A stretch of DNA of 64,000 nt, from assembly GCA_029937135.1 (NCBI GenBank), contig JAPYQX010000001.1:5790-69789 (forward strand), read 5' to 3'. The stretch's first letter is position 1, and the number at the start of each line of letters is the position of its first letter. A program made the position numbers and the translations under genes. This DNA comes from Nitrospinota bacterium. Lineage in GTDB: Bacteria > UBA8248. The notes below the pieces were generated by a model. That model did not search any database and was not told the origin of the DNA. It worked only from the letters and a program-made list of their open reading frames with translations. This document shows, in pieces, positions 16,561 to 35,936 of the stretch.

Positions 16561-17157
16561 ATGGCAACCCTTCAAGAACAACTTTTTGTCCAAGTCGCTA
16601 CCCGCTCGTTGAATCTGTTGGCCAAGAATCTTCAAAAAAAGTACGAACCCAAAAAAGGAGACCGATTCAGCGTCAAGGGAATTACATATGAAATCGGTCC
16701 GCCTCGTTATGTGGACGACGGAATTCGTTTTGAGATCAGCAGCAAGATTCCGGGCGACGAGTTTCCGTCCGGCTATAACGAATCAAAGTATTTCAAGGAA
16801 ATCGAAAAGGTTTGCCAAAAATCCACTAAAAAACCCAGCTCCACCGATATGGAAAACATTATCCGCGAAACGCGGGACCAGGAACGAAAAGAGCGCGATT
16901 ACGTAAAATTGGCCTATCAATACGCCAAGAGCGAACTTTACGATGAAAGCGAAATTTTAAAAGAGGTCGAGAAATTTTCTAAAAACCCGGACCTCGAAAT
17001 TCCTCCTGCCGTGCCGGGCGCGAATACTCTCGCGGCCAGGTTGATTTTGGACCACCTTGAAGGAAGCCTGCTTGAATCGGCGGAAAAGAATATCGAAGGT
17101 CTCATCAAGGCGAACGATTTCGTCCGCTCGGGGTTCAAGAAAGCAAAGGGAAAGTAA
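16561..17157 (+). CDS. hypothetical protein encoded in a low-GC island
   Basis: 198 aa with no recognisable domain. The gene is about 48% GC, against a 62-65% background. It is preceded by a 230-bp AT-rich region and ends 12 nt before nagA. Confidence 0.5.
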   Translation: MATLQEQLFVQVATRSLNLLAKNLQKKYEPKKGDRFSVKGITYEIGPPRYVDDGIRFEISSKIPGDEFPSGYNESKYFKEIEKVCQKSTKKPSSTDMENIIRETRDQERKERDYVKLAYQYAKSELYDESEILKEVEKFSKNPDLEIPPAVPGANTLAARLILDHLEGSLLESAEKNIEGLIKANDFVRSGFKKAKGK

Positions 17158-17168: not shown

Positions 17169-18401
17169 GTGCCCATGACCCCGCTTATCGCGATTACCGG
17201 ATGCGCGGTCAGATCGCCGCTTGAACATATATCCAACGCCCTGATCCTCGTGGATCAGGGCGTTGTTTCTTATGTCGGGCCTTTGGGTTCGCTTCCAATA
17301 CCCCAAAATGCGGAAACCCTGGATCTCGGCGGGCGGGTGGCTTGTCCCGGTTTTATCGACCTCCAAGTGAACGGCCTGGGCGGCTACGCGGTGATGGCCG
17401 GCGAGGCCGCCGGCGTCAGGGCGATGGCCCTTGAACTGGCCTCGCGCGGAACCACGTCGTTTCTTCCCACCCTTACAACATCCTCGAAAGACCATCTTTT
17501 GGCCTCGGCCTCGGCCGTGCGCCAGGCGTGGGAAACTCTTGAAAAGGAAAATATCCCCGCCGCCTTGATTTTGGGCGTACATCTCGAGGGCCCCTATTTT
17601 TCAAAAATCATGGCGGGCGCGCATCCGCCCGAGCACATCCGGCCGATTGATCTCGAAGAGATCGAACTCATCGCGGAGGCCTCGGGGGGGTGGGGGGCGG
17701 AGGGCCGTCCGGGGCTCCGGCTGGTCACGCTCTCCCCCGAGCTCGAAGGCGCTCCCGAGGCGGTCCGCTGGCTCGGGGAGCGCGGCGTCCTGGCCGCGAT
17801 GGGGCACACGGCGGCTTCGGACCATAGGGTGGAGGCGTTCATATCCGCTGGAGGAGCGTTCGCGGTCCATGCCTATAACCGCTACGGCTCGCCCGGAGAT
17901 GCCGATTCTCCGGAGGGGAGCCCTCCCGATCACCGCTCCCCGGGGCCGATGGCGGCCGTGGGTTCTGACCCCGGGCTAATGGCGGGCATCATCGCGGATG
18001 GCGTCCACGTACACCCAAAAGTAGTTTCCGAATTTATCCAGATAAAAGGCTGGTTCCGGACGGTTCTCACTTCCGACCTTGTGTCCGGCGGCGGGCTTTC
18101 AGGGAGTGAAAATACACAAGCTTCCAGGTTCGCCGTTAAGCATGAAGGTATTTTGACCGGAAGCCGCTTATCCGTCGGGGAGATGATCCCGCTGATTAAA
18201 AAATGGTGCCCGTTGGACGATAGCCGTATCCTGGCGCTCGCCACCTGGAACCCTGCGAGGCTTCTTGGGGCGCCGGGGGAAATAGGCTGCCTGCGCCCGG
18301 GCGCGAGGGCGGATATCTGCTTCCTCGACCCGGGATCCCTGGAGGTATCAAGAGTGATTGCTGGCGGCGAATGGGTTTCCGGCTCCCCGCCCCGGGGGTG
18401 A
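17169..18401 (+). CDS. nagA: N-acetylglucosamine-6-phosphate deacetylase
   Basis: PGFIDLQVNGLGG, LPTLTTSS, GVHLEGPYF, GHTAAS and GIIADGVHV correspond to conserved NagA blocks. One low-complexity insertion is present. Confidence 0.8.
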   Translation: MPMTPLIAITGCAVRSPLEHISNALILVDQGVVSYVGPLGSLPIPQNAETLDLGGRVACPGFIDLQVNGLGGYAVMAGEAAGVRAMALELASRGTTSFLPTLTTSSKDHLLASASAVRQAWETLEKENIPAALILGVHLEGPYFSKIMAGAHPPEHIRPIDLEEIELIAEASGGWGAEGRPGLRLVTLSPELEGAPEAVRWLGERGVLAAMGHTAASDHRVEAFISAGGAFAVHAYNRYGSPGDADSPEGSPPDHRSPGPMAAVGSDPGLMAGIIADGVHVHPKVVSEFIQIKGWFRTVLTSDLVSGGGLSGSENTQASRFAVKHEGILTGSRLSVGEMIPLIKKWCPLDDSRILALATWNPARLLGAPGEIGCLRPGARADICFLDPGSLEVSRVIAGGEWVSGSPPRG

Positions 18402-18486: not shown

Positions 18487-20079
18487 ATGTTCGACTTCCT
18501 TTTTCGCAATGCGCTTGTATATGACGGAAGCGGCGCGGATCCCTATGTCGGGGATTTGGCGGTCGAAGGGGAAATCATCGCCGAGATCGCTCCGGTGGGC
18601 GCTCAAAACGCCCGCTGGGTTATCGACGCCGAGGGTTTGGCCCTCACCCCCGGTTTTATCGATATCCACGGCCACTCCGATTATTACCTCTTGATGAACC
18701 CCACGGCCGAGGCCAAGGTTCGCCAGGGAGTGACGACCGATGTCGGCGGGAATTGCGGTTATTCCGCCGCCCCTATCGGCGGGATGGAGCTCGAGGAGCG
18801 CCGCTCGTATTACCGCGAGCAGTTCGGTTTGGAGATTCCCTTTTCGCGCCTTGATGAGTACCTCCGCCATGTCGAGGACATTGGCGTGTCGGTGAACTAC
18901 GCCCCCCTTATCGGCCACAACACTCTCCGCGCCACCGTGATGGGAGGAAGTGATCGGCCCGCGGGGCCGGACGACCTCGCCCGGATGGATCGTCTGGTTG
19001 ATGAGGGAATGCGGGCGGGCGCTTTCGGTCTTTCAACCGGCCTGGTTTATGCCCCGGCCTGTTTCGCTGATCGCTCGGAGTTGACGGCTCTATCCAGAAC
19101 CGCCTCGCGGCATGGCGGTTTGCTCGCTACCCATATGAGGAGCGAGGGCGCCGGGCTTTTGGAGTCGATCGAGGAAGTTATCGAAATCGCCCGGAACGCC
19201 GCGCTTCCCCTTCAAATCAGCCACCTGAAAACCGCGGGAGAGAAAAACTGGGATAAACTGGACGCGGCATTCGCGTTGATCGAAGGGGCGAGGTCGTCGG
19301 GTCAGGACGTTACCTGCGACCGATATCCTTATATAGCGTCGAATACCCATCTGAGTGCCCTGCTGCCCGATTGGGTCCATAATGGCCAGTTGGATGAGAA
19401 ATTGGCCCGGCTGCGCGAGCCCGCTAGCAGAAACCGGATTCGCGGCGAATTGATGGAAACTTATCCGGGCGCGGATTATTGGGATCGCGTTTTGATCAGC
19501 CGGGTCCTTACGGAGGAAAACAGTTTTTGCGAGGGGCTCACCGTGGCGGGGCTCGCGGAAAAAAGAGGGGTCGATTCACCGGAAGCGATGATGGATCTCC
19601 TTGCCGAAGAAAAGCTGTCCGTTGAAATCCTCATCTTCATGATGAACGAGGAAAACATGCGCCGGGTCATGGAAAAACCCTATGTGATGGTCGGCTCGGA
19701 TTCCGCCGCTTTAACTCATGAGCCTCCCCTGGGGTCGGGGAGACCCCACCCGAGGAATTTCGGGACGTTCCCGGCGGTGCTGGGAAATCTGGCGAGAGAC
19801 GAAGGGCTGTTTTCTTTTTCCGAAGCGATACGAAAGATGACCTCCGCTCCCTGTGATCGGCTGGGTATAAACAATCGCGGAAGATTGGCGGCCGGGATGA
19901 AAGCCGATCTTGTTCTTTTGGACCCCGAGCGGATTCTGGATACGGCGACTTATGATAAGCCTGTTTCCTACCCCGCCGGAATACGGATGGTTCTCGTGAA
20001 CGGTGAAGCTGTAGTCGAAGACGGAGAGCACACAGGAGCCCGCCCCGGCCGGGCGCTCCGCAAATGGGATTCAAGATAA
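18487..20079 (+). CDS. N-acyl-D-amino-acid deacylase (D-aminoacylase) family amidohydrolase
   Basis: GFIDIHGHSD and DRYPY motifs, 530 aa. Confidence 0.85.
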   Translation: MFDFLFRNALVYDGSGADPYVGDLAVEGEIIAEIAPVGAQNARWVIDAEGLALTPGFIDIHGHSDYYLLMNPTAEAKVRQGVTTDVGGNCGYSAAPIGGMELEERRSYYREQFGLEIPFSRLDEYLRHVEDIGVSVNYAPLIGHNTLRATVMGGSDRPAGPDDLARMDRLVDEGMRAGAFGLSTGLVYAPACFADRSELTALSRTASRHGGLLATHMRSEGAGLLESIEEVIEIARNAALPLQISHLKTAGEKNWDKLDAAFALIEGARSSGQDVTCDRYPYIASNTHLSALLPDWVHNGQLDEKLARLREPASRNRIRGELMETYPGADYWDRVLISRVLTEENSFCEGLTVAGLAEKRGVDSPEAMMDLLAEEKLSVEILIFMMNEENMRRVMEKPYVMVGSDSAALTHEPPLGSGRPHPRNFGTFPAVLGNLARDEGLFSFSEAIRKMTSAPCDRLGINNRGRLAAGMKADLVLLDPERILDTATYDKPVSYPAGIRMVLVNGEAVVEDGEHTGARPGRALRKWDSR

Positions 20080-23000
20080 TGGGCCTCTATTCCTCCCTGT
20101 CCCTGGTTGGCGCGATGGCGGTTAGTGCGCTCATCGCCATCTGGCTGTTCTACAAGCGCTCGCACAGGGATGATTTTCCCGAGGAAACCTGGGACCCCTA
20201 CTTTGACAAAAATCAGATCGGCGGTGGGGAAAATCCCGAAAGAGAGATCGAAGATATCTCCGGAAGGGGGGCCGGGGATGCCGCCGCGCCAGGTCTTGAA
20301 CCGGCATCTGAAAATCCGCCCGTCCCGGCCTCCAATGCGCTGGAGGATCGAATTCGGGGACTCAGGGATGAGATGTCTTCTCCGGGAGAGGACACCGACG
20401 AAGTATATGAATTCGGAGACAGCAAGAACCCCGTTCCCGAATTTGATCTCGGTCTCGACGATCAGGTGGAACAGATTGGCGGCGGCCCTGTTTCTCCCGA
20501 AAAACCCGATACAGACCGCGAAACGGCTGATCTCGCCTACGCCGCGGGTGAGGCGGAGGACGATTTCTCCGTTCCTGGAAGCCCGATTGAAACGCCCGCT
20601 CATCCACAGGGCGTATCGTCCGGTTTTGGCGGCCCGGAGGATTTTGAACCTGATTTGAATGAAAAAGCCGCCGCCTCTTCTCCGGGCGTCCCGTGGTGGG
20701 AGGGGCTTCCCGCCGCCAAGGAAGTTGTTTTCCAGAGAGGTGTGGCGGAACTGATGGGGATGACCGTCATCGATCCCCCGGGGCGGGCCGAGGCGGGTCC
20801 CGGCGAAGCCTCTACACTCGAAGCATCGACTCTTGAAGCATCGCCTCCCGAAACATCGGCTCTCGAAGCCTCGGAGACCTTCAATATGCCCGGCGATATG
20901 GCGGCGGATTCAATTCCCCCGGAAGGAGTGGATGAAGCCGAGGAGCCGCCCGCCCCGGAATTCGCCGGAGCGCCGCCCTTCGGGGAGGAAGATTCGGAGA
21001 CGCCGCGTTCCTTTGAGGAAGAAGCTTTCGAGGAAGATGAATCCCCCGTCCCGGCGCCCGCTCCGGAGGAGCAGCCCCCCGGCGAGCCGGTTTCTATATC
21101 GGACGAATCCGTGCCCACCCAAGAAATCCCGGCTGTGGATGAAGGTGATGAGTCGTCCTTTACCCTTGATTCCTTGTCGTTCGGTGACGAGCCGGACGAG
21201 GCTCCCGTGATGTACGAGGCCGAAAGCGCCACCAACCGGGCGGAAGACGGCGGATTCGCCGAACCGGGCGTCGATCAAGAAGACGTGGCCGGAGAGGGGC
21301 TTGCCCCGAAGGAGCCCGCTTTTGAGGAATCATCGGAGCAGGTTTCGTTAACCAGCGAGCCAGTCCCGGAAGAGCCGGTCGGTGCTCCCGAAAACCTCAG
21401 TGAATCTCCCTCCCCCGGCGAATCCGCTTCCACCCAAGAAATCCCGGCTGTGGATGAGGGTGATGGGTCGTCCTTTACCCTTGATTCCTTGTCGTTCGGT
21501 GACGAGCCGGACGAGGCTCCCGTGATGTACGAGGCCGAAAGCGCGCCCGCCCCTGTGGGAGAGGAGGAAATTTCGCTTTCGTCTCCCTCGGACAGCGAAT
21601 CCTCCGAAGCGATTGGTAACTTTCTCGCGGAGACTGAACCGCCTCCCTCCGCTCCGGGCGCTCCGGGCGCGGAGAGCGATTTCGTGGACGATGAGATTGA
21701 ACCTGCTCAGGAGACCGTAACCGAAGGGGAAATTTCTCCCGAACCGGAAGATGAAAGTTTCTCGAGTTTGGGAGAGTCCGAGGAAAAGCCCATGGCTTTC
21801 GATCTTGCCGCCGAGGGGTCGGAGTTCATCGATTCCGATGAATCGGCGCAAGAGCTGCCCACCGATCTTGGAGACGAAAAATTCGCATCTCATGAACCGG
21901 AGGAATTTTCCGCGGCATCCACCGGGCCGGTGGAGCCCGCCGGGCTTGGGGCGGAGGAAAGCGCTCCCGGCGATGAGCTGGAAAAAATTTCCAAAGACTC
22001 CGCCGAGGCAATCCTCGATCCCGAAGAGCTTGAGGAAGAGACGGAGCCTGAAGAAGAGCCCGCCGGCGCCGGCAGCGAACCCGTTCAAACAGAAGAAGCA
22101 TCAACGGGGGCGGTTCTCGATCCGATGGAGATGGAAGAGGAGCCTCCTGAACGGGCAATTGATTCGGAATCGTTCGAGGCCGAACCCGCGCCTCACTCTT
22201 TCGTCCAGCCGGATGACGCCCTGCCCGCCGCCGAACCGGAGGGACCTGCCCCGGAGGGACCTGTATCTGAGGAGCCCGAACCGCCGGAGCCCGTTTCGGG
22301 AGGATATGTCCCGGAGGAGTCTCTTGATGTTTTCTCCGTTCTGGAGCAGGAGCGCTCCGAAACCCCGGAGAGCATGCCGCAGGAATCGATTGGAAACGCG
22401 GCTCTTTTTGAGGATTTCGGCGATGAGAGGGCCGAGCCGCCGGAACCCCACGCCGCCGGGTGGGGCGGCGATCCTGCCGGGGCTGGAGGCGATTCCGAAG
22501 ATGCTTCCCGGAGAGAATTTGACTCGGAGGAAATCCCGGCCCAATCCGAAGAAGTCGAAGCAGAGCCCCCCCGGGAAGGAAAAATTCCTGCCGAGGAAGC
22601 GCTGGAACCAGCCATTTCTCCCCGGCCGGCCCCGCCTTCACTGCCGGCCATTACTCCCTTAACGGGTGGGTCGATGCCCGAAATTGTGCGGAATTTTATC
22701 GCCAATTATTGTCCTGACGATCTTCTGTTGATTGAAGAGGAGTGGGATACCCTTCCTGGTGGTATTGATAAAGTCGCCGCTTCCGCCTGGAAAGATATAC
22801 AGGAGCGTCTGGAAGCGCGCCAGGAAGTTGATGAGGCGGAATTTCTCCGAATCGGCCTCCTTGAATATTTGATGGGCGATCATGATGCCGCCTTGGCTCA
22901 TCTGAAAGAGTCGCTTCGGCGGGCTAAGCGCATGGGCCCGGTTTTAAATGCTCTTGGCGCGACCAGCTTTGCACGGGGGAAAATCGACCCGGCGATTTCT

Positions 23001-23819
23001 TATTGCCGGGAAGCGGTCCGGGAGGCGGGGCCGGACATGAAAATGCTGGTTGCCATCAACCGGAATCTGGGGGTTCTCTACCAAACCAAGGGCGAGTTCG
23101 GGCGCGCGGCCGAGGCGATTGCCTCGGCTATCAAGTTCGTGAGGTCCGAGGGAAGCCCCGGGATGTTGGCGAACCTTCATCTCCGGGCGGGGCAGTTGTT
23201 CCGGAAACTCGGGGACGCCGAAGCCGCCAGGCATCATCTTTCCGAGTCGGCGCATTTGTTCCTTCGTGCGGGCGACGATGCCGCGCGAATCAGGTCGCTT
23301 GTGGCGCTCGCCGCCGCGCAGACGAGATTAAACGAAATTGACGAGGCGCTCAAGAATCTGAACGAAGCGGCCTTGATGTGCCGAAGGGCGGGGGACAAAA
23401 ACGGAGAGGCCCTGGTCATGGGGCAGATGGGAATCGCCTACTCCGCCCAGGAGCAATATACCAGGGCGCTTGAATTTTATGAGAATGCCATTTCCCTCAA
23501 CCGAGAGCTTGAAAATCGCAAGGGGGAAGGGGCCAACCTCAGCAACATTGGGAACATTCATTATTTCAGGGGCGATTTCGACGAGGCGCTTTCCGCCTAC
23601 GACGAGGCGCTCGTGATTAATATCGAGCAGGATCATCTCATCGGGCAAGCCACGATTATGGGGAACCTGGGAAGAATTTATCTCGAGCAAGGGAGGGTGG
23701 AAGAGGCGATCGCGCGGCTGAAAGAATCGCTGGAAATATTCAAGCCCTTTGCCGCTGATAGCCAGATGGAAAATATACGGGAAATGCTGGCCGAGGCGGC
23801 CCGCACCCGGGATCAATAA
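20079..23819 (+). CDS. membrane-anchored, extremely acidic low-complexity protein with C-terminal TPR domain (HubP/FimV-like architecture)
   Basis: ATG overlaps the upstream stop (TAATG). The N-terminal TM helix is MGLYSSLSLVGAMAVSALIAIWLF. About 850 aa of E/P/S/A/D-rich sequence with internal repeats follow. The last 350 aa or so form TPR repeats. Confidence 0.8.
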   Translation: MGLYSSLSLVGAMAVSALIAIWLFYKRSHRDDFPEETWDPYFDKNQIGGGENPEREIEDISGRGAGDAAAPGLEPASENPPVPASNALEDRIRGLRDEMSSPGEDTDEVYEFGDSKNPVPEFDLGLDDQVEQIGGGPVSPEKPDTDRETADLAYAAGEAEDDFSVPGSPIETPAHPQGVSSGFGGPEDFEPDLNEKAAASSPGVPWWEGLPAAKEVVFQRGVAELMGMTVIDPPGRAEAGPGEASTLEASTLEASPPETSALEASETFNMPGDMAADSIPPEGVDEAEEPPAPEFAGAPPFGEEDSETPRSFEEEAFEEDESPVPAPAPEEQPPGEPVSISDESVPTQEIPAVDEGDESSFTLDSLSFGDEPDEAPVMYEAESATNRAEDGGFAEPGVDQEDVAGEGLAPKEPAFEESSEQVSLTSEPVPEEPVGAPENLSESPSPGESASTQEIPAVDEGDGSSFTLDSLSFGDEPDEAPVMYEAESAPAPVGEEEISLSSPSDSESSEAIGNFLAETEPPPSAPGAPGAESDFVDDEIEPAQETVTEGEISPEPEDESFSSLGESEEKPMAFDLAAEGSEFIDSDESAQELPTDLGDEKFASHEPEEFSAASTGPVEPAGLGAEESAPGDELEKISKDSAEAILDPEELEEETEPEEEPAGAGSEPVQTEEASTGAVLDPMEMEEEPPERAIDSESFEAEPAPHSFVQPDDALPAAEPEGPAPEGPVSEEPEPPEPVSGGYVPEESLDVFSVLEQERSETPESMPQESIGNAALFEDFGDERAEPPEPHAAGWGGDPAGAGGDSEDASRREFDSEEIPAQSEEVEAEPPREGKIPAEEALEPAISPRPAPPSLPAITPLTGGSMPEIVRNFIANYCPDDLLLIEEEWDTLPGGIDKVAASAWKDIQERLEARQEVDEAEFLRIGLLEYLMGDHDAALAHLKESLRRAKRMGPVLNALGATSFARGKIDPAISYCREAVREAGPDMKMLVAINRNLGVLYQTKGEFGRAAEAIASAIKFVRSEGSPGMLANLHLRAGQLFRKLGDAEAARHHLSESAHLFLRAGDDAARIRSLVALAAAQTRLNEIDEALKNLNEAALMCRRAGDKNGEALVMGQMGIAYSAQEQYTRALEFYENAISLNRELENRKGEGANLSNIGNIHYFRGDFDEALSAYDEALVINIEQDHLIGQATIMGNLGRIYLEQGRVEEAIARLKESLEIFKPFAADSQMENIREMLAEAARTRDQ
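21116..21229 (+). repeat. copy A of a 114-bp near-identical intragenic repeat (encodes TQEIPAVDEGDESSFTLDSLSFGDEPDEAPVMYEAESA)
   Basis: Two mismatches against copy B, which lies 315 bp downstream. Confidence 0.9.
21431..21544 (+). repeat. copy B of the 114-bp intragenic repeat
   Basis: See copy A. Confidence 0.9.
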
Positions 23820-23862: not shown

Positions 23863-24373
23863 CTAACCTCCCACGAGAACATCGGTCTCGCGGAGTTTCC
23901 TGGAAAGCTCTTTCGCCAAATGAGTAGCGATCTTGAAGCCCAGCGAGGGCAGGGTGTCGGCCAAAATGTCGCGTTCTATCGAAAAAAGCAATGTTTCCCT
24001 GGCGGCCTCCGCAGTGGCGACACGGGGCGCTTCCTCGAGAATCGCCATCTCCCCGAAACAATCTCCTTGTTTAAGTCTCGAAAGTTCGGTTATGCCGCGC
24101 CGTATGATCACCTCTCCATAAACGATCACGTAAAAACAATTTCCCAAGTCGCCCTGGTCGAATATCGTTTGGCCGGGCTCGTACGATCTGCGTCCGCAGA
24201 GTTTCAATATCCAGGTAATTTCCCTCTCGTCCATCACGGAGAAAAAAATCGTAATTCTCCCGGAGCTTGGCAATGAGTTCGGTGACCGGGGATATTCCTT
24301 CGCGCGTCAATTGAAAACCTCGTTCTTTCTGCGGGACATCGCCCGAGTTGTAGTTCGTTTTCTCCTTGCTCAT
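23863..24373 (-). CDS. cyclic nucleotide-binding domain protein, apparently interrupted by a +1 frameshift at an A7 tract (24242-24248)
   Basis: The core cNMP-binding domain (FDQGD...FGEMAILEEAPR..) lies in ORF 23863..24273. A strong RBS (GGAGGGGGAGGAG) and ATG at 24373 open a second frame whose product (..ELIAKLRENYDFF) continues seamlessly into the domain (SVMDEREITW..) if one A is removed. Confidence 0.6.
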
Positions 24374-24499
24374 GACTCCTCCCCCTCCGTGCCCGTTTCA
24401 GGCAAGAGCTGACGTATGAAATATAAATTAAAAAGAAGGAACTTTCATGACTTTTCGTGTAAGCGGGGTCACTTTTAGCGAGGGTTGGGGTTGGAGAAA

Positions 24500-25087
24500 T
24501 TACAGTTTTTTGACTTTTTCTTTTATGACGTTGAGTTGTCTTTGCATCAACTTGATGGTTTCGTTCGAATCGCGGAGCTTTTCGGAAAGTTGGCGTGCGA
24601 TGCTCGCTATGACCTTGTTGCCAAAAGTCGGCATTTTGGAATAGAGAATCGTCTTTGAAATGGAAAAAGGAAGGAGGGTTCCGAAGCCATCGCGGACGCC
24701 GTACGCCTCGCATCGTCGAGCAGGGCCATTTCACCAAAGACCATTCCGGGTCTCATTCGGGCGACCTCCTTGTCTCCGACGGTGATAATGATCTCGCCCG
24801 AAACAACCAGGTAAAATTCATTTCCGTGTTCGCCTTCCTTGAAAACCCTGCTCCCGGAATTGAAATTTTCCCTTTTGCAAAGTTTCAGGAATTGGCCCAC
24901 CTCCATCCCCTCCATCTCGGAGAAGAAGGGGGTAGTTTTTCTAAAGTTTTTGAATCAGGTTCAGCAGCGCTTTCGGAATGGATTTTTCGAACTTGATTCT
25001 CTGAGCCATGAGGTTCGGAGCCGCGGGAGCCGCCGGAGTCACCGGGGCACCGGGTTTGGGATTTCCTTTTCCAGCGGGCATGTTCAT
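24500..25087 (-). pseudogene. second cNMP-binding domain paralog, split by two frameshifts at homopolymers (T5 at 24947-24951 and A5 at 24664-24668)
   Basis: Three consecutive ORF pieces (24941..25087, 24607..24915, and a third frame ending in TAA at 24500-24502) align end to end with paralog 1. ..ALLNLIQ | KTTPFFSEMEGMEV..FGEMALLDDARRTASAMASEPSFLF | SISKTILYSKMP..IARQLSEKLR.. Confidence 0.5.
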
Positions 25088-25271
25088 TACTCTTCGCTCC
25101 CCGAGAGATGAATGCGGGTTTGAAGGAAGCACGAAAAAATCATTTCGCCTGCTCCGCTGGTATCGTTAAAATCCAGTTACTTCGCGTTCAATCCACATCA
25201 GCCTGAAAGATATACCTTAAAAAAAGGATGGTACAACTATTAGAATTTTAATAGTTACGAATAAACAAACA

Positions 25272-27725: not shown

Positions 27726-30020
27726 TCACCTTTTCGATTTCTTCGTAGATTGGCTCTGCTTTCCGTAGATTCGCCGATATTCGTCAAGATAGCCGAGAAC
27801 TTTTTTAACGTAATTGCGCGTTTCCTGATAAGGGATTCGTTCGATAAAAACTTCAATGGGCTCCTCGCCCCGCCTGGCCCACCATTTCTTAACCACCCTT
27901 TTGCCGGCGTTGTAGCTGGCGATCGCCGGAACGAGTTCACCCTTGAATCCTTTCACCAGATCGCCCAGATAACGCGCCCCGAGGCGCACGTTCAGCGCCG
28001 GGTCGAACAGGGCTTTATCCGAGGGCCGGGGGATTTTAAGTTTTCGGGACAACCGCCGCGCCGTGGCGGGCATGAGCTGCATGAGCCCGATGGCCCCGGC
28101 GCGCGAAAAAGCGTTTCGGTCGAAAAAACTCTCCGCGCGGATGATGGCGTTGACGAGGAGCGTATCGGCGTCGCCCGGCCTTTTTTTGTTTTGTTGGAGG
28201 GGAAACGCTATTTTCCAAAAAGAAGGCGGCAGATCTTTTCCCCCCGACCGGACGGCATCCCAGAAGGATTTGTGCATGATTTTTATCGCCATGTCATGGC
28301 GTTCTCCATTGAGGTACGCCCTGGCGGTCCGGAGTTTGAAGTAGGACGAGGGCCCCAGCCGCTTGAATTCCTCGGCGGCCAGGAAATAAAACCCCATGGA
28401 GCCGAGCAACTCCCCCGCCCGCCAGTGGTTCATCGAGCCCTTGGTGAGGATGTTTTTCGGGGGGTTAAGCCAATTCCGGTAGCCGGCCGTGGGCCGGGGA
28501 ATCGGCTTGGGGGCGAATCCCGACTCGCGGGCCATGCGCCCGAGGGCGGTTATCGCCCGCTGGCCGTAGTAGCGGTGCCGATAGATCCGGGCGCATTTCA
28601 GGAAAAGCGCCTCGGCCTTTTCCCGCTCCCCCGCCCGTTCGGCGGCTGTGGCGCCCCAGAAGAGGGCCGAGGAGGCGAGGCGGTGATTTGGATGGAGGGC
28701 TTCGAATTTCTCGAATCCCCGGGCCGCCTCGAAATAATCTTTTTCTCTTAAAAGAATCCACGAAAGCTGCCAGCGGGCTTTCGGGGCAAGCGGCGAGTAG
28801 GGATGTTTTTGAATGACCTCCCGGTAGAAGCGGGCGGCGTTTTCATACTCGCCGTCGTCCTCGCTGACCCGCGCGAGGAGAAACCGCGTCCGCCCCGCCC
28901 ACATCCCGTTGGGGGCCTCCTCCAGAAGCGCGCTTGCCTCGGACTTGAAGGCCAGATGATCGTGGCGGCGCAGTTGATTTCGGGTCAGATAGAAGCGGGC
29001 CTGCGCGCGGGCGGGGGAATCGGCGGGAAACAGATGAACGGCTTCCCGGAGCGCCCGCTGGGCTTTTTCGGTCCGGCGGAGTGAATAAAGGGTAAGCGAT
29101 TCGTAGAGGCTGACCTCTCGCTGATGAGGGGATGCCGGAAAGAGGCGGGTCAGCTCCCGGTAGGCCCCAAGGGCTTTTTCGTAGTGATATTTCTTCTGAA
29201 GATGCCGGGCCCTGAGAAAATAGTCGCGCGGCCCGAAGGGGCGAAGGGGAGGGGCCAGGGCCTGGCCGGCCTCACCGGCCCGCTCGAGGGCGCGCTTCGA
29301 GGCGGCGCTCTCCGGGTAGCGGAGCCATAGCCGCCTCCATGCGACCGTGGCTTCCCTCATGCGCCCGCCTCCCTCGAAAGCCTTGGCCCTCCTGGCCAGA
29401 AATTTTCCCGCTTTTTCGTGATTCGGTTTATGGCGAAGCAACTCGCCGAGCCGGGCGGCGGCGCGAAGAAATCGGCCGTTTTGAAACTCGATCCGGGCCA
29501 TCGTCTCCAGAGCGTCCGCGACGTGCGGACTCGCCGGGTCGGTAAGAGTTAATTTCTCCAGCGCCTTTTTCGCCGCCTCGCCGTCCTTGGCGGCAAGCGA
29601 CGCCCTTGCCGAAAAGTGAAGGATATGGGAGCGAAGCTCGGGCGCTTGGCGAAGGGCGCGTCTGAAATAGGATACGGCGTCCTGGTTGCGTTTCAGCTTT
29701 AACGAAGCGTAACCGAGTAAAAAAGAGCGGCGACCGTTCAACTGAGAGGTGTGTTCCTCCAGCCGGGACACCAGCTTTTTATAATTTTTCTTTTTGATGA
29801 GACGAAGTAAATCTTTTGGAAGCGCGGAAATCATCGGTGGTTTTTTCCGCTTGTTTCTTCTCTTGCTTGTTTTCTTTTTTAATTTGAAACCGGTTTTGGA
29901 GGGTTTCTTCAAATCAATGGAGGGGATCGGTATTTTAGGAGCGGAATGGGAATGGGAAAGGGAAGCAAAAGAATATACGGCGGCGAATGTCAGAGTGAAA
30001 ATAATTTTTCGGCGAACCAT
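27726..30020 (-). CDS. soluble lytic murein transglycosylase (Slt70-like; superhelical repeat domain plus SLT catalytic domain)
   Basis: Signal peptide, long TPR-like helical region, and a C-terminal SLT domain (ESFFDRNAFSRAGAIGLMQLMPATA....SYNAG). Confidence 0.85.
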   Translation of the reverse strand: MVRRKIIFTLTFAAVYSFASLSHSHSAPKIPIPSIDLKKPSKTGFKLKKKTSKRRNKRKKPPMISALPKDLLRLIKKKNYKKLVSRLEEHTSQLNGRRSFLLGYASLKLKRNQDAVSYFRRALRQAPELRSHILHFSARASLAAKDGEAAKKALEKLTLTDPASPHVADALETMARIEFQNGRFLRAAARLGELLRHKPNHEKAGKFLARRAKAFEGGGRMREATVAWRRLWLRYPESAASKRALERAGEAGQALAPPLRPFGPRDYFLRARHLQKKYHYEKALGAYRELTRLFPASPHQREVSLYESLTLYSLRRTEKAQRALREAVHLFPADSPARAQARFYLTRNQLRRHDHLAFKSEASALLEEAPNGMWAGRTRFLLARVSEDDGEYENAARFYREVIQKHPYSPLAPKARWQLSWILLREKDYFEAARGFEKFEALHPNHRLASSALFWGATAAERAGEREKAEALFLKCARIYRHRYYGQRAITALGRMARESGFAPKPIPRPTAGYRNWLNPPKNILTKGSMNHWRAGELLGSMGFYFLAAEEFKRLGPSSYFKLRTARAYLNGERHDMAIKIMHKSFWDAVRSGGKDLPPSFWKIAFPLQQNKKRPGDADTLLVNAIIRAESFFDRNAFSRAGAIGLMQLMPATARRLSRKLKIPRPSDKALFDPALNVRLGARYLGDLVKGFKGELVPAIASYNAGKRVVKKWWARRGEEPIEVFIERIPYQETRNYVKKVLGYLDEYRRIYGKQSQSTKKSKR

Positions 30021-31252
30021 TACTTTTTCGCGGTTCCGGTGCTTGAAGCCGGGCGCCCGCCCTCGACCCGAAGCTTTTCGTTTCGAAACGCTTCCTTGAC
30101 CCGGTCTCTCGCTTTTTTATCGAGGAAGATATCGACGCCGGTCATCGCGAGAGCCTTGGCCCCGAGGATAAGTGTTTTTTTCCCGGCGACTCCTCCAGCA
30201 GCCCTGGCGAAGGCCTGCGTGTGCGCGGAGATATCGGGCGATACCATTTGAATCTCGGGATGAATGGTGGGCGCGTTCTGGCTGGCGTTCCCGACATCCG
30301 AAGAACCCATGGCAAGGGGAGGAAGCGGATCCAGCTCAAAGACGCCCAGACTTTCGAGATTTTTTCTGAATAGAGAGGCCAACTCTCCGTTTACGCGCAT
30401 GGGCGCGTAGGTGATCGGATTTTTTTCGACGCGGACCCTGGTTCCGGTGGCGCGCGCCGCCCCCCTGGCGCAGTTGATGACTCGCTGGACAATATCATCG
30501 AGGCCTTTCGCGGTTTCACTCCGGACGTAAAACCAGGCGGATGCCTTTTCGGGGATGATGTTGGGCGCTTCTCCGCCCTCGGTGATCACTCCGTGGACCT
30601 TGGCGCCCGGCGGAAGGTGCTGCCTGAGAGCGGAAATGGCGCTGAATGTGGCGAGAACGCCATCCAGCGCGTTGATTCCTTTTTCGTGGGCCGCCGATGC
30701 ATGGGAGGCTTTGCCGTGAAAACGAAATCGAAGCTCCGCCAGGGCGAGGAAATTGACCATCGCGCGGGTCTCCCCCGAAGGATGCATCATCATATTGGCG
30801 TCGATTTTCCGGAAAAAACCCTTTTTCGCCATGATAACTTTTCCGCCCCCGCCCTCCTCGGCGGGTGTCCCAAGGACCTGGACGCCGCCTGCCTCGGGCC
30901 CCAAGACACTGACCAGCGCGGCGCCGGCTCCTGCGCTGGCCATGGCGATTACGTTGTGCCCGCAGGCATGTCCCAGGCCGGGAAGAGCATCGTATTCGGC
31001 CATGAACGAGACCACCGGCTTGCCCGCGCCCTTGGCCGGACGTTTTGCCCTGAAAGCGGTGGGAAGGTCCGCCACCCCCATCTCGACGCTGAAGCCCCGC
31101 TCCTCCAGGAACCGGGCGACGGCCGCCGAGGCGCGTTTTTCCTGAAAAGCCAGTTCGGGGTGGCGGTGGAGTTCGAGGGAAAGGGACCAAAGAGAAGGCA
31201 CTGCCACATCGATGCTCACGGCGACAGCGGATTTGATTCGGTCGAGTTCCAT
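30020..31252 (-). CDS. M20-family amidohydrolase (AbgB/hippurate hydrolase-like)
   Basis: Start MELDRIKSAV. HACGHN and other M20D metal-ligand motifs. Confidence 0.85.
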   Translation of the reverse strand: MELDRIKSAVAVSIDVAVPSLWSLSLELHRHPELAFQEKRASAAVARFLEERGFSVEMGVADLPTAFRAKRPAKGAGKPVVSFMAEYDALPGLGHACGHNVIAMASAGAGAALVSVLGPEAGGVQVLGTPAEEGGGGKVIMAKKGFFRKIDANMMMHPSGETRAMVNFLALAELRFRFHGKASHASAAHEKGINALDGVLATFSAISALRQHLPPGAKVHGVITEGGEAPNIIPEKASAWFYVRSETAKGLDDIVQRVINCARGAARATGTRVRVEKNPITYAPMRVNGELASLFRKNLESLGVFELDPLPPLAMGSSDVGNASQNAPTIHPEIQMVSPDISAHTQAFARAAGGVAGKKTLILGAKALAMTGVDIFLDKKARDRVKEAFRNEKLRVEGGRPASSTGTAKK

Positions 31253-31340
31253 GACAAGGACCCATGGGCGGATTGACCAGCGATTATCGCCGGAGCTTAG
31301 AATTGATGTCAACGATTCGTCGAAAACAACTGTATTGACG

Positions 31341-32144
31341 ATGATTGTTAAAAAAGCAATACTTTTCCTGCCCGCCCGACGGAGAATGGTCTTGCAGTTT
31401 ATTCTTGCACCGGCGCTGGCGGTTGGCGAAAGCTTGCCCGCTGCTCAGACTGGTTTGGATATCTGGAGCCTGGCCTTTGGCTCCAGCGGTGTTGTTTTTT
31501 TTGTCCTGCTTATCTTGATTTTTTTCTCGTTGGCCTCCTGGGCGATTATCATCTGGAAATTCATCGAACTTCGGCGGGCGAAAATCGCCTGTGATGATTT
31601 CCTGATGACTTTCTGGCAAGCCAAGCGGCTCGATCAGCTCTACGAGGAGGCCGTCGTCACCGAGGGAAATCCCGTTGTCGAGGTTTTCACGGCGGGCTAC
31701 CGCGAGGCGGAGCATGTCCTCAAGGCGCGGACGAGAAACGCCTCCGAGGATTCGTCGGTCCTGACCTCCGAGCTGTCAGGCGTGGAGAGCGTGGAGCGCG
31801 CTCTCCGGCGGGCGGCGAACCAGGAAATCTCAAACCTCGAGCGCCTTATTACTTTTTTGGCCACGACGGCCAGCGCGACCCCGTTTATCGGTCTTTTTGG
31901 AACCGTTTGGGGGATCATGAAATCGTTTCGCGACATCGGCGTCCAGGGGTCCGCCGGGCTGGCGGTCGTCGCTCCCGGAATCAGCGAGGCGCTGATCGCC
32001 ACGGCGCTCGGCCTGGCGGCGGCGATTCCCGCTGTTATCGCGTATAATCACTTTCAGAATCGCATCAAGGTTCTCTCCGACGAAATCGAGAACTTTACAG
32101 CGGACTTTCTCAATCTCGTTGGTCGCCATTTCATGAGTATGTAG
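31341..32144 (+). CDS. tolQ: Tol-Pal system protein TolQ (MotA/TolQ/ExbB proton-channel family)
   Basis: Three TM helices and the C-terminal motif TTASATPFIGLFGTVWGIM. The start is uncertain (alternatives at 31386 or a TTG further downstream). Confidence 0.8.
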   Translation: MIVKKAILFLPARRRMVLQFILAPALAVGESLPAAQTGLDIWSLAFGSSGVVFFVLLILIFFSLASWAIIIWKFIELRRAKIACDDFLMTFWQAKRLDQLYEEAVVTEGNPVVEVFTAGYREAEHVLKARTRNASEDSSVLTSELSGVESVERALRRAANQEISNLERLITFLATTASATPFIGLFGTVWGIMKSFRDIGVQGSAGLAVVAPGISEALIATALGLAAAIPAVIAYNHFQNRIKVLSDEIENFTADFLNLVGRHFMSM

Positions 32145-32160
32145 GCTCCGGAGCGGACAT

Positions 32161-32610
32161 TTGGCCGGTCACATCAACCGCGGCGGCGGCTCACGCCTAT
32201 CGGAAATCAACGTAACCCCCTTTGTGGACGTGATGCTCGTCCTGCTGATTATTTTCATGGTAACGGCTCCGATGCTCGAACAGCAGCAGAGCCAAGTGAA
32301 TGTCGATCTACCCGACGTGATGGCCGCTCCATCGAGCGCGGCCGAGGGCGCCGTAGTCATCACGGTGGATATCGGCCGGCGAATTTATATTAACGATAAC
32401 GAAGTAAAACCGGAGGATCTCGAGGTGAAGCTGACCCTCCTATTTAAAAGCCGGGCGCGCAAGGAGATTTTCCTCCGGGCCGATCAGGCCGTACCCTATG
32501 GCGATGTGGTGAAGACAATGGCGGCCATCCGCAAAGCGGGAATCACGCACCTAAACATGGTAACCGAACCGCTGGAGCGTAAAAGCAGAAAAACCTCACG
32601 CCGCCGATAA
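32161..32610 (+). CDS. tolR: Tol-Pal system protein TolR (ExbD/TolR family)
   Basis: TTG start 8 nt after GGAG. SEINVTPFVDVMLVLLIIFM TM helix followed by a periplasmic domain. Confidence 0.85.
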   Translation: MAGHINRGGGSRLSEINVTPFVDVMLVLLIIFMVTAPMLEQQQSQVNVDLPDVMAAPSSAAEGAVVITVDIGRRIYINDNEVKPEDLEVKLTLLFKSRARKEIFLRADQAVPYGDVVKTMAAIRKAGITHLNMVTEPLERKSRKTSRRR

Positions 32611-32625
32611 GCCCAGTTTCATAAA

Positions 32626-33744
32626 ATGAGCGAAAAAACCCCCAACCCCCCCTCCGGAGAAACCTCCGGCTCCACCCCGCCCCTCAGGGGGTTCGGCGGA
32701 GCGCCGTATAATGGCGGGGTGCGCGTTCTTTTCCGCGATAAAAAGTTCCGGTGGGCCTGGGGAATTTCGCTCATCCTCCACGCGGTGCTGTTCGCTACCG
32801 CCGCATGGTCCCCCTCGTCGGCGAATTACCGATTCTTCGGGAGCGGAACGGCGGTCAGCCTCGTGGGGGTGGACGAAATCCCGGGGGGGTCGGCCCGAGG
32901 AAAATCCGGTGATCGCCCGGAGGACGTACAAAAGCCCAAATCCTCCGGAGGCGGCAAGGCCCGGAAAATCGCCGCGCCCGAAAAAAATAGCAAGAAAAAA
33001 AAGACCAAGGCCCGGAAAATCGCCGCGCCCGAAAAAAATAGCAAGAAAAAAAAGACCAAGGCGCGTAAACGCCGGGTCCGGAAGAAAAAATTTCCTCCGA
33101 AAAAATCGGCCAGAAAGCTACTGTTAGATAAGAAAAAAAAGAATAAAAAGAAGAAGAAAAAAATGAGCAGGGTGCACCGGGCCCGGCTCAAGCGGCTGAG
33201 AGCGCGCCGGGCCAGGCTGAAAAAATGGCGCAACAGACAAAAGAAGGTGGTCAAGGGCAAGGCGAAGGCGCCCTCTTCCTCCAGGCCTCCTTCTGCCAAG
33301 AAGAGCCGAAAAACGAAGAAGCTGGTCGGAGACCGCGTCGCGAAAGTTGCGCCGGCCAAGCCTAAGGCAGGTTACCCCGGCGAGGGCGGGGGTGACGGCC
33401 AGGGCGGCGGGAGTTTGGGCGGCGGGAGCGGCGGGGTCGCGCGGACCGAAATCGACCGTTATTATGGTCTCCTGGGCGAGCGGGTGAGAAATTTCTGGAC
33501 CGTTCCGGAGATTTTCTCCGATCTCGAAAAACTAAGGACCGTTGTGATTTTCGATGTTTCGCGCGAGGGTGAAATTCGCCGTCTCCGCATCGAGAAAACG
33601 AGCGGCAACCGGATATACGAGACCGCAGCGCTGCGGGCGGTTCAGCGCGCCGCCAACCCCTCTCTTCCTCGGCCGCCCAATACGGTGACGGAAGAGTGGC
33701 TCCAATTGGGCTTTCGATTTTGCGGGAAGAGTTTATGCCGTTAA
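32626..33744 (+). CDS. tolA: TolA-like protein (TM anchor, Lys-rich helical linker, TonB/TolA C-terminal domain)
   Basis: N-terminal TM helix (WAWGISLILHAVLFATAAW), a K/R-rich central region containing a tandem duplication, and a C-terminal TolA/TonB-type domain. Confidence 0.75.
   Translation: MSEKTPNPPSGETSGSTPPLRGFGGAPYNGGVRVLFRDKKFRWAWGISLILHAVLFATAAWSPSSANYRFFGSGTAVSLVGVDEIPGGSARGKSGDRPEDVQKPKSSGGGKARKIAAPEKNSKKKKTKARKIAAPEKNSKKKKTKARKRRVRKKKFPPKKSARKLLLDKKKKNKKKKKKMSRVHRARLKRLRARRARLKKWRNRQKKVVKGKAKAPSSSRPPSAKKSRKTKKLVGDRVAKVAPAKPKAGYPGEGGGDGQGGGSLGGGSGGVARTEIDRYYGLLGERVRNFWTVPEIFSDLEKLRTVVIFDVSREGEIRRLRIEKTSGNRIYETAALRAVQRAANPSLPRPPNTVTEEWLQLGFRFCGKSLCR
32956..33057 (+). repeat. perfect 51-bp tandem duplication (2 copies) inside tolA, encoding KARKIAAPEKNSKKKKT twice
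   Basis: 32956-33006 equals 33007-33057. It contains A7-A8 tracts. Confidence 0.9.
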
Positions 33745-33758
33745 CGGAGATGATTCTG

Positions 33759-35129
33759 ATGATTCGGACTGGAACCTGGCGGGGGAGAATTGGCCGCCGC
33801 CGCAGTGGATGGATTGCCGCGGGGGTTGTTTTGTTTGTGCTGGCGGCCGGGGGAGGCTTCACGGGGCGGGCCGAGGGTGCTCCCAAGGGCCGCGTCTATA
33901 TGGATTTATACTCGCCAAGCGCGAGGAGAATTCGCCTTGCCATCCCCGAGCTTCGCCCGCTGGGGGGCAAACGCGACCCGATGGGGCTTCGCATCGCCGA
34001 GATTATCGAATCCGATCTTCAGCGCAGCGGTTTGTTTTTCGTCCGAAACCGGAAAGGGTATCTCGAGAATCCGCTTAAATCGGGAATCCGGAAAAACGAG
34101 CAGCGCTTCAAGGAATGGCTCAACGTCGTCAAGGTCGAGGGATTGATCAAAGGGGGCTACCGCATATCGGGAAATACGATTGAAGTGGAAATGTATCTCT
34201 ACGACACCGCGCGCGGGGTGCAGGAGCTCGGGAAGCGGTACCGCTATCCTCGTTCGAACTGGAGGCTGCTCGCACACCGGTTCGCCAATTCCGTGCTCGA
34301 GCGCTACACCGGCCAAAAAGGTATATTCCACACCCAGCTTGCTTTTGTGTCCCGCCGCTCCATAAAACACCGGGGCGAAATTTACATCATGGATTGGGAT
34401 GGCGCCCAGCTCCGCCGCGTCACGCGCAACGGGCAGGGCAACAACGCCCCCGTCTGGTCGCCGGACGGAAAATGGCTGGCCTACTCATCTTTTAAAACGA
34501 GGGTGCCCGGCGTATTTATTCTTCCGACGAACGGGGGCAGGGAGTTCCGGGTTAGCTCGAGGCGGGACCAGGCGATTGGCGGCGCGTTCTCCCCGGACAG
34601 CCGTTATTTCGCCTACTCCCAACTCACCGGCCGAAACTATGAAATTTACCGGTACGATATGTTCTCTCGTGTGAGGAAGCGCCTTACGAGAAATTTTGGA
34701 GTCGATGTTACGCCGTCCTTTTCACCGGACGGTAAAAAAATCGTGTTTTCTTCGGGCCGCAACGGAAACCCCCAGATCTACGTCATGAACGTCAACGGCT
34801 CCGGGGTGCGGCGAATCTCTCAGCGGGGGACCTACAATACCGAGCCGGAATGGAGCCCCAGGGGCGACCGAATCGCTTTTACCGGCCGGGTTACGGACGG
34901 CTCCTCCATCGATATCGTTACGGTGAATCCCGACGGGAGCGATTTGCGCCGCCTGACCGGGGGCCAGCGAAGGAATGAGTCTCCCACCTGGTCTCCGGAC
35001 GGCAGGAATATTGCGTTTTCCTCAGATCGCTCGGGCCAGAAATACATTTATGTGATGACCTCGGCCGGAACCCAGCTAAAACGCCTTCAATTGGGACAAG
35101 AACCCTCCTGGTCGCCCTCTCTCCCGTGA
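33759..35129 (+). CDS. tolB: Tol-Pal system beta-propeller protein TolB
   Basis: Signal peptide, TolB N-terminal domain, and repeated WSPDG beta-propeller blades (SPDGKWLAY, FSPDS, FSPDGKK, WSPRGD, WSPDGRN). Confidence 0.9.
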   Translation: MIRTGTWRGRIGRRRSGWIAAGVVLFVLAAGGGFTGRAEGAPKGRVYMDLYSPSARRIRLAIPELRPLGGKRDPMGLRIAEIIESDLQRSGLFFVRNRKGYLENPLKSGIRKNEQRFKEWLNVVKVEGLIKGGYRISGNTIEVEMYLYDTARGVQELGKRYRYPRSNWRLLAHRFANSVLERYTGQKGIFHTQLAFVSRRSIKHRGEIYIMDWDGAQLRRVTRNGQGNNAPVWSPDGKWLAYSSFKTRVPGVFILPTNGGREFRVSSRRDQAIGGAFSPDSRYFAYSQLTGRNYEIYRYDMFSRVRKRLTRNFGVDVTPSFSPDGKKIVFSSGRNGNPQIYVMNVNGSGVRRISQRGTYNTEPEWSPRGDRIAFTGRVTDGSSIDIVTVNPDGSDLRRLTGGQRRNESPTWSPDGRNIAFSSDRSGQKYIYVMTSAGTQLKRLQLGQEPSWSPSLP

Positions 35130-35909: not shown

Positions 35910-35936
35910 GGATTTTGTTTTTCGCGCTTTAAAGGA

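Follow-up and report, generated by a model that had tools for sequence, protein, structure and literature searches.

Does the large acidic membrane protein considered here belong with HubP and FimV, which are polar landmark proteins, or is it a scaffold of another kind? It is encoded at positions 20079-23819 of a 64,000-nucleotide stretch (the window) of contig JAPYQX010000001.1 from a Nitrospinota bacterium (assembly GCA_029937135.1, positions 5,790 to 69,789, forward strand), and a preliminary description made from the sequence had favoured the former alternative. In the ocean, nitrite is oxidised mainly by the Nitrospinota, and to our knowledge almost nothing is known about their cell biology. 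The reading that we prefer, with a probability of about one half, is that the protein would be a lineage-specific bitopic inner-membrane scaffold, that is, a membrane-tethered multivalent adaptor whose groove of tetratricopeptide repeats (TPRs) binds aromatic-acidic peptides; this is suggested by sequence comparison, structure prediction and analogy with TPR domains of solved structure.

A single conserved gene of the Nitrospinota

20079-23819, plus strand: the whole gene, encoding a bitopic membrane protein with a transmembrane (TM) anchor, an acidic disordered region and a TPR domain; a 100% identical protein is present in NCBI

The open reading frame (ORF) of 1246 residues that had been placed at these positions was confirmed by the ORF listing and the translation; it is uninterrupted, and the listed span is 20064..23819. 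The products of all orthologs open with MGLYSS or MSLYSS, hence the ATG at 20079 is the conserved start. This codon shares its A with the TAA stop codon of the upstream ORF (junction ...AAGATAATGGGC).

In a word-indexed search across 5.8 billion proteins we found the identical NCBI protein and four full-length relatives (67, 68, 42 and 40% identity). The alignment of the five sequences runs end to end, and every indel in it is in frame. The family was further scanned with HMMER, using a three-sequence profile against 1.84 billion cluster representatives. Sixteen TM-anchored proteins (588-1250 aa, the five close relatives included) comprise the same five parts in the same order: the anchor; FP(E/A)ETWDPY; the module PWWEgLPAPkdv..RRtVAeLMG; DVFSVxExER; and the cap LxRxLVxxxCPxDLLLxE with the TPR domain. 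In all of them, and also in three further loci from a protein-pattern scan, these parts are encoded by one ORF, as the preliminary description had required of a single gene. Codon comparison with the two closest orthologs yielded ratios of nonsynonymous to synonymous substitution rates (dN/dS) of 0-0.05 (TM and juxtamembrane segment), 0.37-0.39 (acidic region) and 0.14-0.18 (C-terminal domain), being below one across every segment of the gene.

Two facts could make one suspect an artefact, in which GC-rich DNA gives a long ORF that is spurious or an error of assembly or sequencing has fused two genes: the high-GC DNA of this region yields many long ORFs, and two neighbouring genes of the window contain frameshifts. 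However, the uninterrupted ORF, with its parts in the same order, recurs in independent assemblies down to ~40% identity. As the relatives are aligned end to end, all indels are in frame and dN/dS is below one in each segment, both the fused and the spurious ORF are excluded, and this explanation, refuted by the ortholog comparison, can be dismissed for all practical purposes. The gene is real and single, and its host is a marine nitrite oxidiser of the Nitrospinota.

Where the close relatives bear a taxon label, they derive from metagenome-assembled genomes (MAGs) of marine Nitrospinota; the records are ODZ_NOB7a (labelled only "bacterium"), ETNP2_MAG_82 and OC6_4000m_MAG_328. All TM-anchored members that bear a taxon label are from Nitrospinota, including a Rifle aquifer MAG and a MAG from a sponge series. 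There is also a sister subfamily without the TM helix (~55 clusters, from genomes of ~2.4-5.3 Mb, some with two paralogs), which shares 44% identity with the window protein in the C-terminal domain. The N-terminal half of these TM-less proteins is acidic and proline-rich, with two to four PWWE motifs and, in most of them, Y(M/V)YRGVRYG motifs. They belong to another lineage; the sole taxon label seen, on one MAG protein, is "Deltaproteobacteria bacterium". The databases name the protein only "tetratricopeptide repeat protein", and our search of the literature on Nitrospina TPR proteins and on the cell wall and cell division of N. gracilis retrieved nothing relevant to the protein.

The membrane anchor and its predicted orientation

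20094-20150, plus strand: TM helix, residues 6-24, SLSLVGAMAVSALIAIWLF; mean Kyte-Doolittle hydropathy 2.15
20151-20201, plus strand: juxtamembrane motif YKRSHRDDFPEETWDPY, residues 25-41; no other part of the protein is as conserved

The single N-terminal TM helix of the preliminary description was recovered as the only hydrophobic helix of the protein, with just residues 1-5 before it. The helix is followed by YKRSHRDD. There are no lysines or arginines before the helix, and a basic cluster (KRSHR, or RRxxRR in relatives) stands after it; the same distribution was observed in 16/16 TM-anchored members. By the positive-inside rule, the N-terminus (~5 residues) is predicted to be outside and most of the chain to be cytoplasmic. 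A TonB- or TolA-type energy transducer with a periplasmic Pro/Glu spacer was also considered and rejected, since the charge distribution predicts the opposite orientation and no TonB_C or TolA match was obtained in Pfam; the true TolA of the window is encoded at 32626-33744.

The juxtamembrane motif retains 85% identity to the two distant orthologs, in the segment of lowest dN/dS (0-0.05, as given above). Of the 16 TM-anchored members, 12 contain FPxETWD, and every one has W38. When the N-terminal 240 residues were used to search for the anchor and the PWWE module in other architectures, only one fragment of 198 aa was obtained.

The acidic region and its conserved islands

20202-22655, plus strand: acidic intrinsically disordered region, residues 42-859, net charge about -195 (from composition, charge and AlphaFold)
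20688-20768, plus strand: conserved module PWWEGLPAAKEVVFQRGVAELMGMTV, residues 204-230 (alignment of the 16 TM-anchored members)
21780-21869, plus strand: conserved island EKPMAFDLAAEGSEFIDSDESAQELPTDL, residues 568-597 (five-sequence alignment)
22116-22151, plus strand: conserved island LDPMEMEEEPPE, residues 680-691 (alignment; expanded in tandem, with a 42-bp unit, in the ODZ_NOB7a ortholog)
22314-22415, plus strand: conserved island EESLDVFSVLEQERSETPESMPQESIGNAALFED, residues 746-779 (alignment; low-confidence helix at 751-760)

The stretch dominated by E, D, P, S and A was borne out by composition and charge, with about 820 disordered residues. It contains 19.5% E, 7.9% D, 13.7% P, 10.3% S and 11.4% A against 3.4% K+R, the net charge being -198 across the 826 aa counted (27% D+E), and the isoelectric point (pI) of the whole protein is 4.05. 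In the AlphaFold model of residues 47-1246, the confidence score pLDDT (predicted local distance difference test) is below 50 over residues 47-893, with low-confidence helices at 87-96, 216-225 and 751-760.

If the polyanion itself were the function, it could serve as an electrostatic brush, a reservoir of cations (Mg2+, Ca2+ or a metal) or a spacer excluding the nucleoid or ribosomes, the TPR domain being used for self-association only. The large net charge (about -195 over ~820 residues) would fit this, as would two tendencies of the family: the region is acidic in every TM-anchored member, so that its acidity is conserved, as the preliminary description demanded, and the marine clade, to which the window protein belongs, has the longest and most acidic versions (net -103 to -232). 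The conservation of the bulk sequence is low as well, with a background identity of 28% to the two distant orthologs. However, among the TM-anchored members the length of the region varies almost five-fold (179-838 aa) and its net charge ranges from -232 to as little as -13 in P0041; hence the motifs and the TPR domain, rather than the total charge, are the constant features. Moreover, discrete motifs are strongly conserved and dN/dS is well below one. Thus, we regard a purely electrostatic function as unlikely.

The dN/dS values show that the disordered part is constrained and is not junk; with a ratio of about 0.37, it is, on this codon comparison, under purifying selection. The conserved islands rise above the background, and each consists of an aromatic or hydrophobic residue within acidic sequence. 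There are about eight such short motifs: FPEETWDPY, PWWEG, SFTLDSLSF...PVMYEAE (twice), PMAFD...EFID, LDPMEMEEE, DVFSVLEQER and AALFEDF. Four parts are common to all or most of the 16 TM-anchored members, namely the juxtamembrane motif, the PWWE/RRxVAELMG module, DVFSVxExER and the cap. In the module, W206, A212, P213, R220, V222, A223, L225, M226 and G227 are shared by at least 13 of the 16, and the same holds for D750, V751, F752, S753, E758 and R759 of the island at 746-779. The island at 568-597 has ten positions invariant in the five aligned sequences (E569, P571, M572, F574, F583, I584, E588, Q591, P594 and L597). PWWE occurs once in most TM-anchored members and in 2-4 copies per TM-less relative.

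The C-terminal TPR domain and the adaptor model

22656-23816, plus strand: C-terminal folded domain, residues 860-1246, with an N-terminal cap (..CPDDLLLIEE..LP), eight TPRs of 40-residue period and a capping helix

A C-terminal TPR domain of about 350 aa had been proposed; the assignment to TPRs stood and the size did not, the fold covering ~380-390 aa. Pfam yields only TPR families here, at residues 937-1222 (TPR_12, E 5.7e-34). AlphaFold applied to the C-terminal 392 residues alone produced a confident all-helical model over residues ~866-1246 (pLDDT 88.2, predicted TM-score 0.77), comprising 19 helices: two N-terminal ones, eight pairs at a 40-residue period and one capping helix. The top Foldseek matches in the PDB are the TPR domains of LGN/Pins (6hc2, 3sf4, 4a1s and 5a7d; E down to 3.5e-12, ~345-358 aligned columns, TM-score 0.58-0.70), followed by the TPRs of OGT and designed consensus TPRs. 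LGN is also the best natural PDB match by sequence (E 2e-26), with the common pattern GEaxaxxNLGNxxxxxGxFdeA; over both fold and sequence searches, the LGN/Pins alignments span 295-358 positions. Thus, according to the model, the C-terminal domain is an eight-TPR solenoid of the LGN/Pins/kinesin-light-chain type, ~390 aa long.

The likeness to LGN (GPSM2, Pins), the cortical polarity adaptors of eukaryotes, comprises the eight-TPR superhelix, the 40-residue repeat and the common repeat pattern. In contrast to LGN/Pins, the TPR domain is C-terminal here, after a TM anchor and acidic disorder, and the identity of ~20% is at the level of the repeat class, a common origin not being seen beyond the TPR_12 repeat class. 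GoLoco motifs yielded no Pfam match, and the protein ends at the TPR capping helix. According to the titles of the PDB entries, the ligands of LGN are Insc, NuMA, Frmpd and afadin, and in the solved relatives extended peptides lie in the concave groove.

For kinesin light chain (KLC), W-acidic, Y-acidic and intramolecular LFP-acidic motifs bind the concave groove of the TPR domain, one of them being situated in the disordered linker of KLC itself, where it auto-inhibits (PMC6214655). The tether of the window protein carries motifs that, judged by eye and by composition, resemble these ligands: FP-acidic, W-acidic (ETWD, PWWE) and Y-acidic (VMYEAE). The two proteins share a solenoid of TPR_12/TPR_10 type and aromatic-acidic-looking motifs in their own disordered region; unlike the window protein, KLC comprises six TPRs together with a heptad-repeat region and lacks a membrane anchor. 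The positions lining the groove in TPR3-8, estimated from canonical TPR numbering and not from coordinates, contain 19% K/R, 22% N/Q and 3% D/E, compared with 9, 8 and 15% for the array's other positions. Across 64 members of the family, N996, R1036 and R1042 show 89-100% conservation.

As the TPR solenoid is joined to a tether with the kind of ligand that this class of TPR binds, we propose the following mechanism. The N-terminal helix would anchor the protein, leaving ~5 residues outside and the remainder in the cytoplasm. The polyanionic proline-rich tether of ~820 residues would carry the motifs and end in the eight-TPR solenoid, whose concave Arg/Asn-rich groove may bind extended aromatic-acidic peptides. 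The groove could take up motifs of the protein itself, either in cis (auto-inhibition) or in trans (a membrane network), or those of partners, and the remaining motifs would recruit cytoplasmic clients. The first candidates for such clients are the products of the same-strand run upstream: the co-translated D-aminoacylase-like enzyme, the NagA-like enzyme and a 198-aa protein, which would link the scaffold to cell-wall recycling.

Several observations weigh against the adaptor model. In the whole family, the estimated groove positions are conserved at 0.70, compared with 0.76-0.78 for other helix-A positions. Two TM-anchored members, P0005 and P0028, have lost the WW pair. The AlphaFold run on residues 47-1246, with the five-sequence alignment and the juxtamembrane motif omitted, placed no motif confidently on the TPR domain; given so shallow an alignment, we do not take this outcome as evidence against binding. 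As for the clients, the whole block of ~25 kb is syntenic in all Nitrospinota examined, hence the adjacency to cell-wall genes may reflect inherited gene order and not functional linkage, and the TM-less relatives reside in another context, beside SPOR-TPR, HAMP and Tad pilus genes. A nearby transporter of the major facilitator superfamily was considered as AmpG-like and rejected, as it is not AmpG-like.

The protein is conserved, constrained and unusual, being among the most acidic membrane proteins likely to be met. If the TPR domain reads the aromatic-acidic motifs, the family would be a bacterial counterpart of adaptor recognition by LGN and kinesin light chain and a second, independent invention of an acidic membrane hub of the HubP/FimV type; otherwise, it would be a lineage-specific TPR protein and a tidy case of concerted evolution of a linear motif in disorder. 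Lineage-specific TPR proteins with disordered regions are common, which tempers the interest in this one as a scaffold. Since the motifs are short and defined and the peptide-binding fold is confident, binding experiments can be designed from the sequence. A more far-reaching version of the adaptor model, which we consider rather doubtful, would be a new bacterial scaffold system: a tethered LGN/KLC-type TPR receptor carrying its own ligand motifs, whose binding in trans would form a switchable network or condensate at the membrane's cytoplasmic side and organise enzymes of cell-wall recycling or of the envelope in Nitrospinota, the TM-less form of the sister lineage using multiple PWWE motifs in place of the anchor.

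Relation to HubP and FimV

HubP and FimV share a LysM-like domain in the periplasm ("a defining feature"), a TM helix, a cytoplasmic region of acidic character and, at the C-terminus, a TPR "FimV domain", which in P. putida spans residues 863-910 (~48 aa); the acidic repeats of HubP vary between close relatives in number and sequence, and polar anchoring of FimV needs LysM (PMC12918733). If the window protein were a polar landmark or hub equivalent to them, either a diverged homologue or a convergent analogue, it would mark the pole or the site of division, and its recruited clients would be those of flagella, pili, chemotaxis or chromosome segregation.

The general plan proposed in the preliminary description holds. 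As in HubP of Vibrio and Shewanella and FimV of Pseudomonas, there is a single pass through the inner membrane with a large predicted cytoplasmic part, a long unstructured acidic region (27% D+E) with variable repeats, and a C-terminal domain of TPR type. Furthermore, the TM-less relatives adjoin a SPOR-TPR gene, a prepilin peptidase gene and Tad pilus genes, which would suit a polar hub.

However, membership of the family does not follow. Unlike in HubP/FimV, the anchor is at the extreme N-terminus, and there is no signal peptide and no periplasmic domain. The absence of a periplasmic LysM part, already remarked upon, was corroborated: Pfam yielded no LysM match at E<=0.01, and the domain (~44 aa) could not fit, as only five residues precede the TM helix. 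No NCBIfam FimV model matched even at E<=1, and comparisons with structures and the PDB revealed nothing that matches the C-terminal domain of FimV in sequence or fold. In place of a FimV-type domain of ~48 aa, for which structure prediction had been the suggested check, the model contains the LGN-like eight-TPR solenoid of ~390 aa; the phylum and the gene context are different as well. No flagellar, pilus or ParA-type client genes were observed among the annotated genes of the window.

Thus, judged by sequence, the resemblance to HubP/FimV is one of layout, not of descent: in an uncharacterised family, the same plan is rebuilt from different, unrelated parts. An equivalent polar role, whether by homology or by convergence, seems rather unlikely to us, and the membrane-tethered peptide-binding adaptor is preferred.

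Concerted evolution of the duplicated motif

20804-20873, plus strand: tandem 15-bp repeat encoding EAS[T/P]L pentapeptides (Tandem Repeats Finder: period 15, 4.7 copies, 78% matches)
21116-21229, plus strand: 38-aa motif, copy 1, TQEIPAVDEGDESSFTLDSLSFGDEPDEAPVMYEAESA (from DNA self-comparison)
21431-21544, plus strand: 38-aa motif, copy 2, with two mismatches to copy 1; it is aligned with the single copy of other relatives

The nested short repeats of the acidic region are present as had been noticed, including EASTLEASTLEASPPETSALEASE and the 15-bp tandem. So is the duplication of a 114-bp segment, the two copies of which differ at 2/114 bases and are 315 bp apart. In the ODZ_NOB7a ortholog we likewise observe two copies of the motif, at a distance of 312 bp. 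The DNA identities are as follows.

The two copies within the window: 96.6%
The two copies within ODZ_NOB7a: 94.0%
Motif copies, window against ODZ_NOB7a: 73-77%
The spacer between the copies, window against ODZ_NOB7a: 60% (shuffled control, 47 +/- 2%)

The substitutions specific to each genome (TLDSLSF...YEAE as opposed to TLESISL...YEPE) are present in both copies of that genome. Since the identity is higher within the genomes than between them, the spacer is shared and both copies carry the substitutions of their own genome, these comparisons indicate that the duplication is old, predating the split from the 67%-identical relative ODZ_NOB7a, and that gene conversion has made the two copies uniform since then, a case of concerted evolution. 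Of the two alternatives offered earlier, recent duplication or gene conversion, the former is hence to be abandoned and the latter retained.

In ETNP2_MAG_82 and one metagenome contig, one copy has been lost together with the spacer, which constitutes a deletion of one period. P0005 has kept two diverged copies, the other relatives have one recognisable copy, and each of the three extra orthologs from the protein-pattern scan has a single copy. An exact 30-mer of the 38-aa repeat had no match in the metagenome contigs. The motif core SFTLESL...PVMYEPE is conserved, SFTLES...PVMYEPE being kept in the marine clade. Other internal repeats are lineage-specific: the window protein has the 38-aa pair and the EASTL run, ODZ_NOB7a has an array of four 42-bp units (LDPGELEEEPAEAT), and P0030 has LPDISREISLASEDAAA twice and VSFEDDPSxD three times.

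Gene context

18487-20079, plus strand: D-aminoacylase-like amidohydrolase, 530 aa, directly upstream (PDB 1m7j, E 6.8e-89; Pfam Amidohydro_3)
17169-18401, plus strand: NagA-like amidohydrolase (TIGR00221, 187 bits, below the cut-off of 225.65)
16561-17157, plus strand: conserved 198-aa ORF, the first of the same-strand run (no Pfam or NCBIfam match)

The 198-aa ORF, the NagA-like gene, the D-aminoacylase-like gene and the scaffold gene form a same-strand run that recurs in nine annotated TM-anchored loci. The D-aminoacylase-like gene is directly upstream in 12/12 TM-anchored loci where the upstream gene is readable. Its coupling to the scaffold gene through TAATG, reported in the preliminary description, is as stated: the A is shared by the stop and start codons, and the enzyme assignment is supported by the match to PDB 1m7j. 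The same description had the gene following nagA; this gene is indeed two positions upstream, and its identity goes no further than NagA-like, the score of 187 bits being under the cut-off. The NagA-like gene is present in most of the relatives' loci and absent from L001-L003, while the ORF of 198-201 aa is found at the same position in all annotated TM-anchored loci (called as 239 aa in L003).

On the other strand downstream there are zero to three genes for proteins binding cyclic nucleoside monophosphates (cNMPs), an M20 hydrolase, AnmK (421.7 bits with NF007148, above the cut-off of 387), an SLT lytic transglycosylase with TPRs and a second M20 hydrolase; beyond the latter follow TolQ, TolR, TolA, TolB, Pal and CpoB. 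The theme of the context is thus cell-wall turnover and envelope maintenance.

This context bears upon another alternative, in which the protein would be dedicated to tethering the co-translated D-aminoacylase-like (perhaps also the NagA-like) enzyme to the membrane or to regulating it, for cell-wall recycling at the inner membrane where muropeptides enter. It would explain the tight junction of the two genes, whose stop and start codons overlap or adjoin in 10/12 loci, the remaining two having a gap of 12-17 nt; in the three pattern-scan loci, the stop-start junction to the ORF upstream is of the same kind. The upstream enzyme is a clear homologue of D-aminoacylase or N-acyl-D-glutamate deacylase, and AnmK, the lytic transglycosylase and the M20 hydrolases are adjacent. 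Cummings and colleagues are said to have reported in 2009 that members of this enzyme group hydrolyse L-Xaa-D-Glu dipeptides, such as L-Ala-D-Glu of murein peptides, which also counts for a tether of this kind. On the other hand, in a syntenic region the co-linearity may be inherited gene order, no such enzyme is encoded in the 10-kb flanks of the TM-less relatives, and no muropeptide permease was identified. A review of D-acylases gives no physiological role for these enzymes. We consider a dedicated enzyme tether a minor, though real, possibility.

ZipA, the FtsZ tether of gammaproteobacteria, has an N-out TM helix, a long flexible charged proline-rich linker and a peptide-binding C-terminal domain. 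The window protein has the same order of parts and, by prediction, the same topology, and its block includes Tol-Pal-CpoB, with MreB 15 kb away, so one could imagine a ZipA-like tether of the divisome or elongasome whose C-terminal domain captures the acidic-hydrophobic tail of FtsZ or a similar cytoskeletal protein. However, Pfam yields no ZipA_C match, the gene is outside any dcw cluster, and unlike that of ZipA the linker is far longer, strongly acidic and furnished with conserved motifs. Such a function is very improbable.

Some further features of the region are given here as observed. MreB is encoded at 4271-5302 (minus strand), 15 kb upstream, beside a GAF-GGDEF gene. The complete Tol-Pal cluster occupies 31212-36934 (plus strand), 7 kb downstream; its CpoB passes TIGR02795, and LigA follows it. 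The SLT lytic transglycosylase (27726-30020, minus strand, 764 aa) has a long TPR region; of the NCBIfam models, the one that it matches best is the Borrelia "flagellar assembly lytic transglycosylase" (179 bits, below the cut-off of 234). In the TM-less loci L011, L013 and L014 (P0043, P0178 and P0204), Tll0287-like and ammonium-transporter genes are located upstream, and genes for a HAMP protein, a TPR-SPOR protein, prepilin peptidase, RcpC and the Tad pilus downstream.

Both cNMP-binding genes of the window (23863-25130, minus strand) are split over two frames when compared by tblastn with the intact 170-aa and 207-aa ODZ_NOB7a orthologs, hence they are either pseudogenes or products of assembly or sequencing frameshifts; the frame changes are near 24245 and 24650/24955, and the GC content is low (0.47-0.51). 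In the ODZ_NOB7a locus (L005/L006, 6627-8294), a gene for a HAMP-guanylate/adenylate cyclase is inserted between the NagA-like and D-aminoacylase-like genes, beside two cNMP-binding genes, which may hint at cyclic-nucleotide signalling around the locus.

At the 198-aa ORF the GC content drops to 0.44, and its product has a net charge of +2 and a pI of 8.4; it was considered as a basic counter-ion partner and rejected, the net charge being just +2. Finally, a terminator scan detected, on both strands, a perfect 14-bp inverted repeat with a 4-nt loop at 17234-17265 (CAACGCCCTGATCC TCGT GGATCAGGGCGTTG), situated in the 5' part of the NagA-like ORF.

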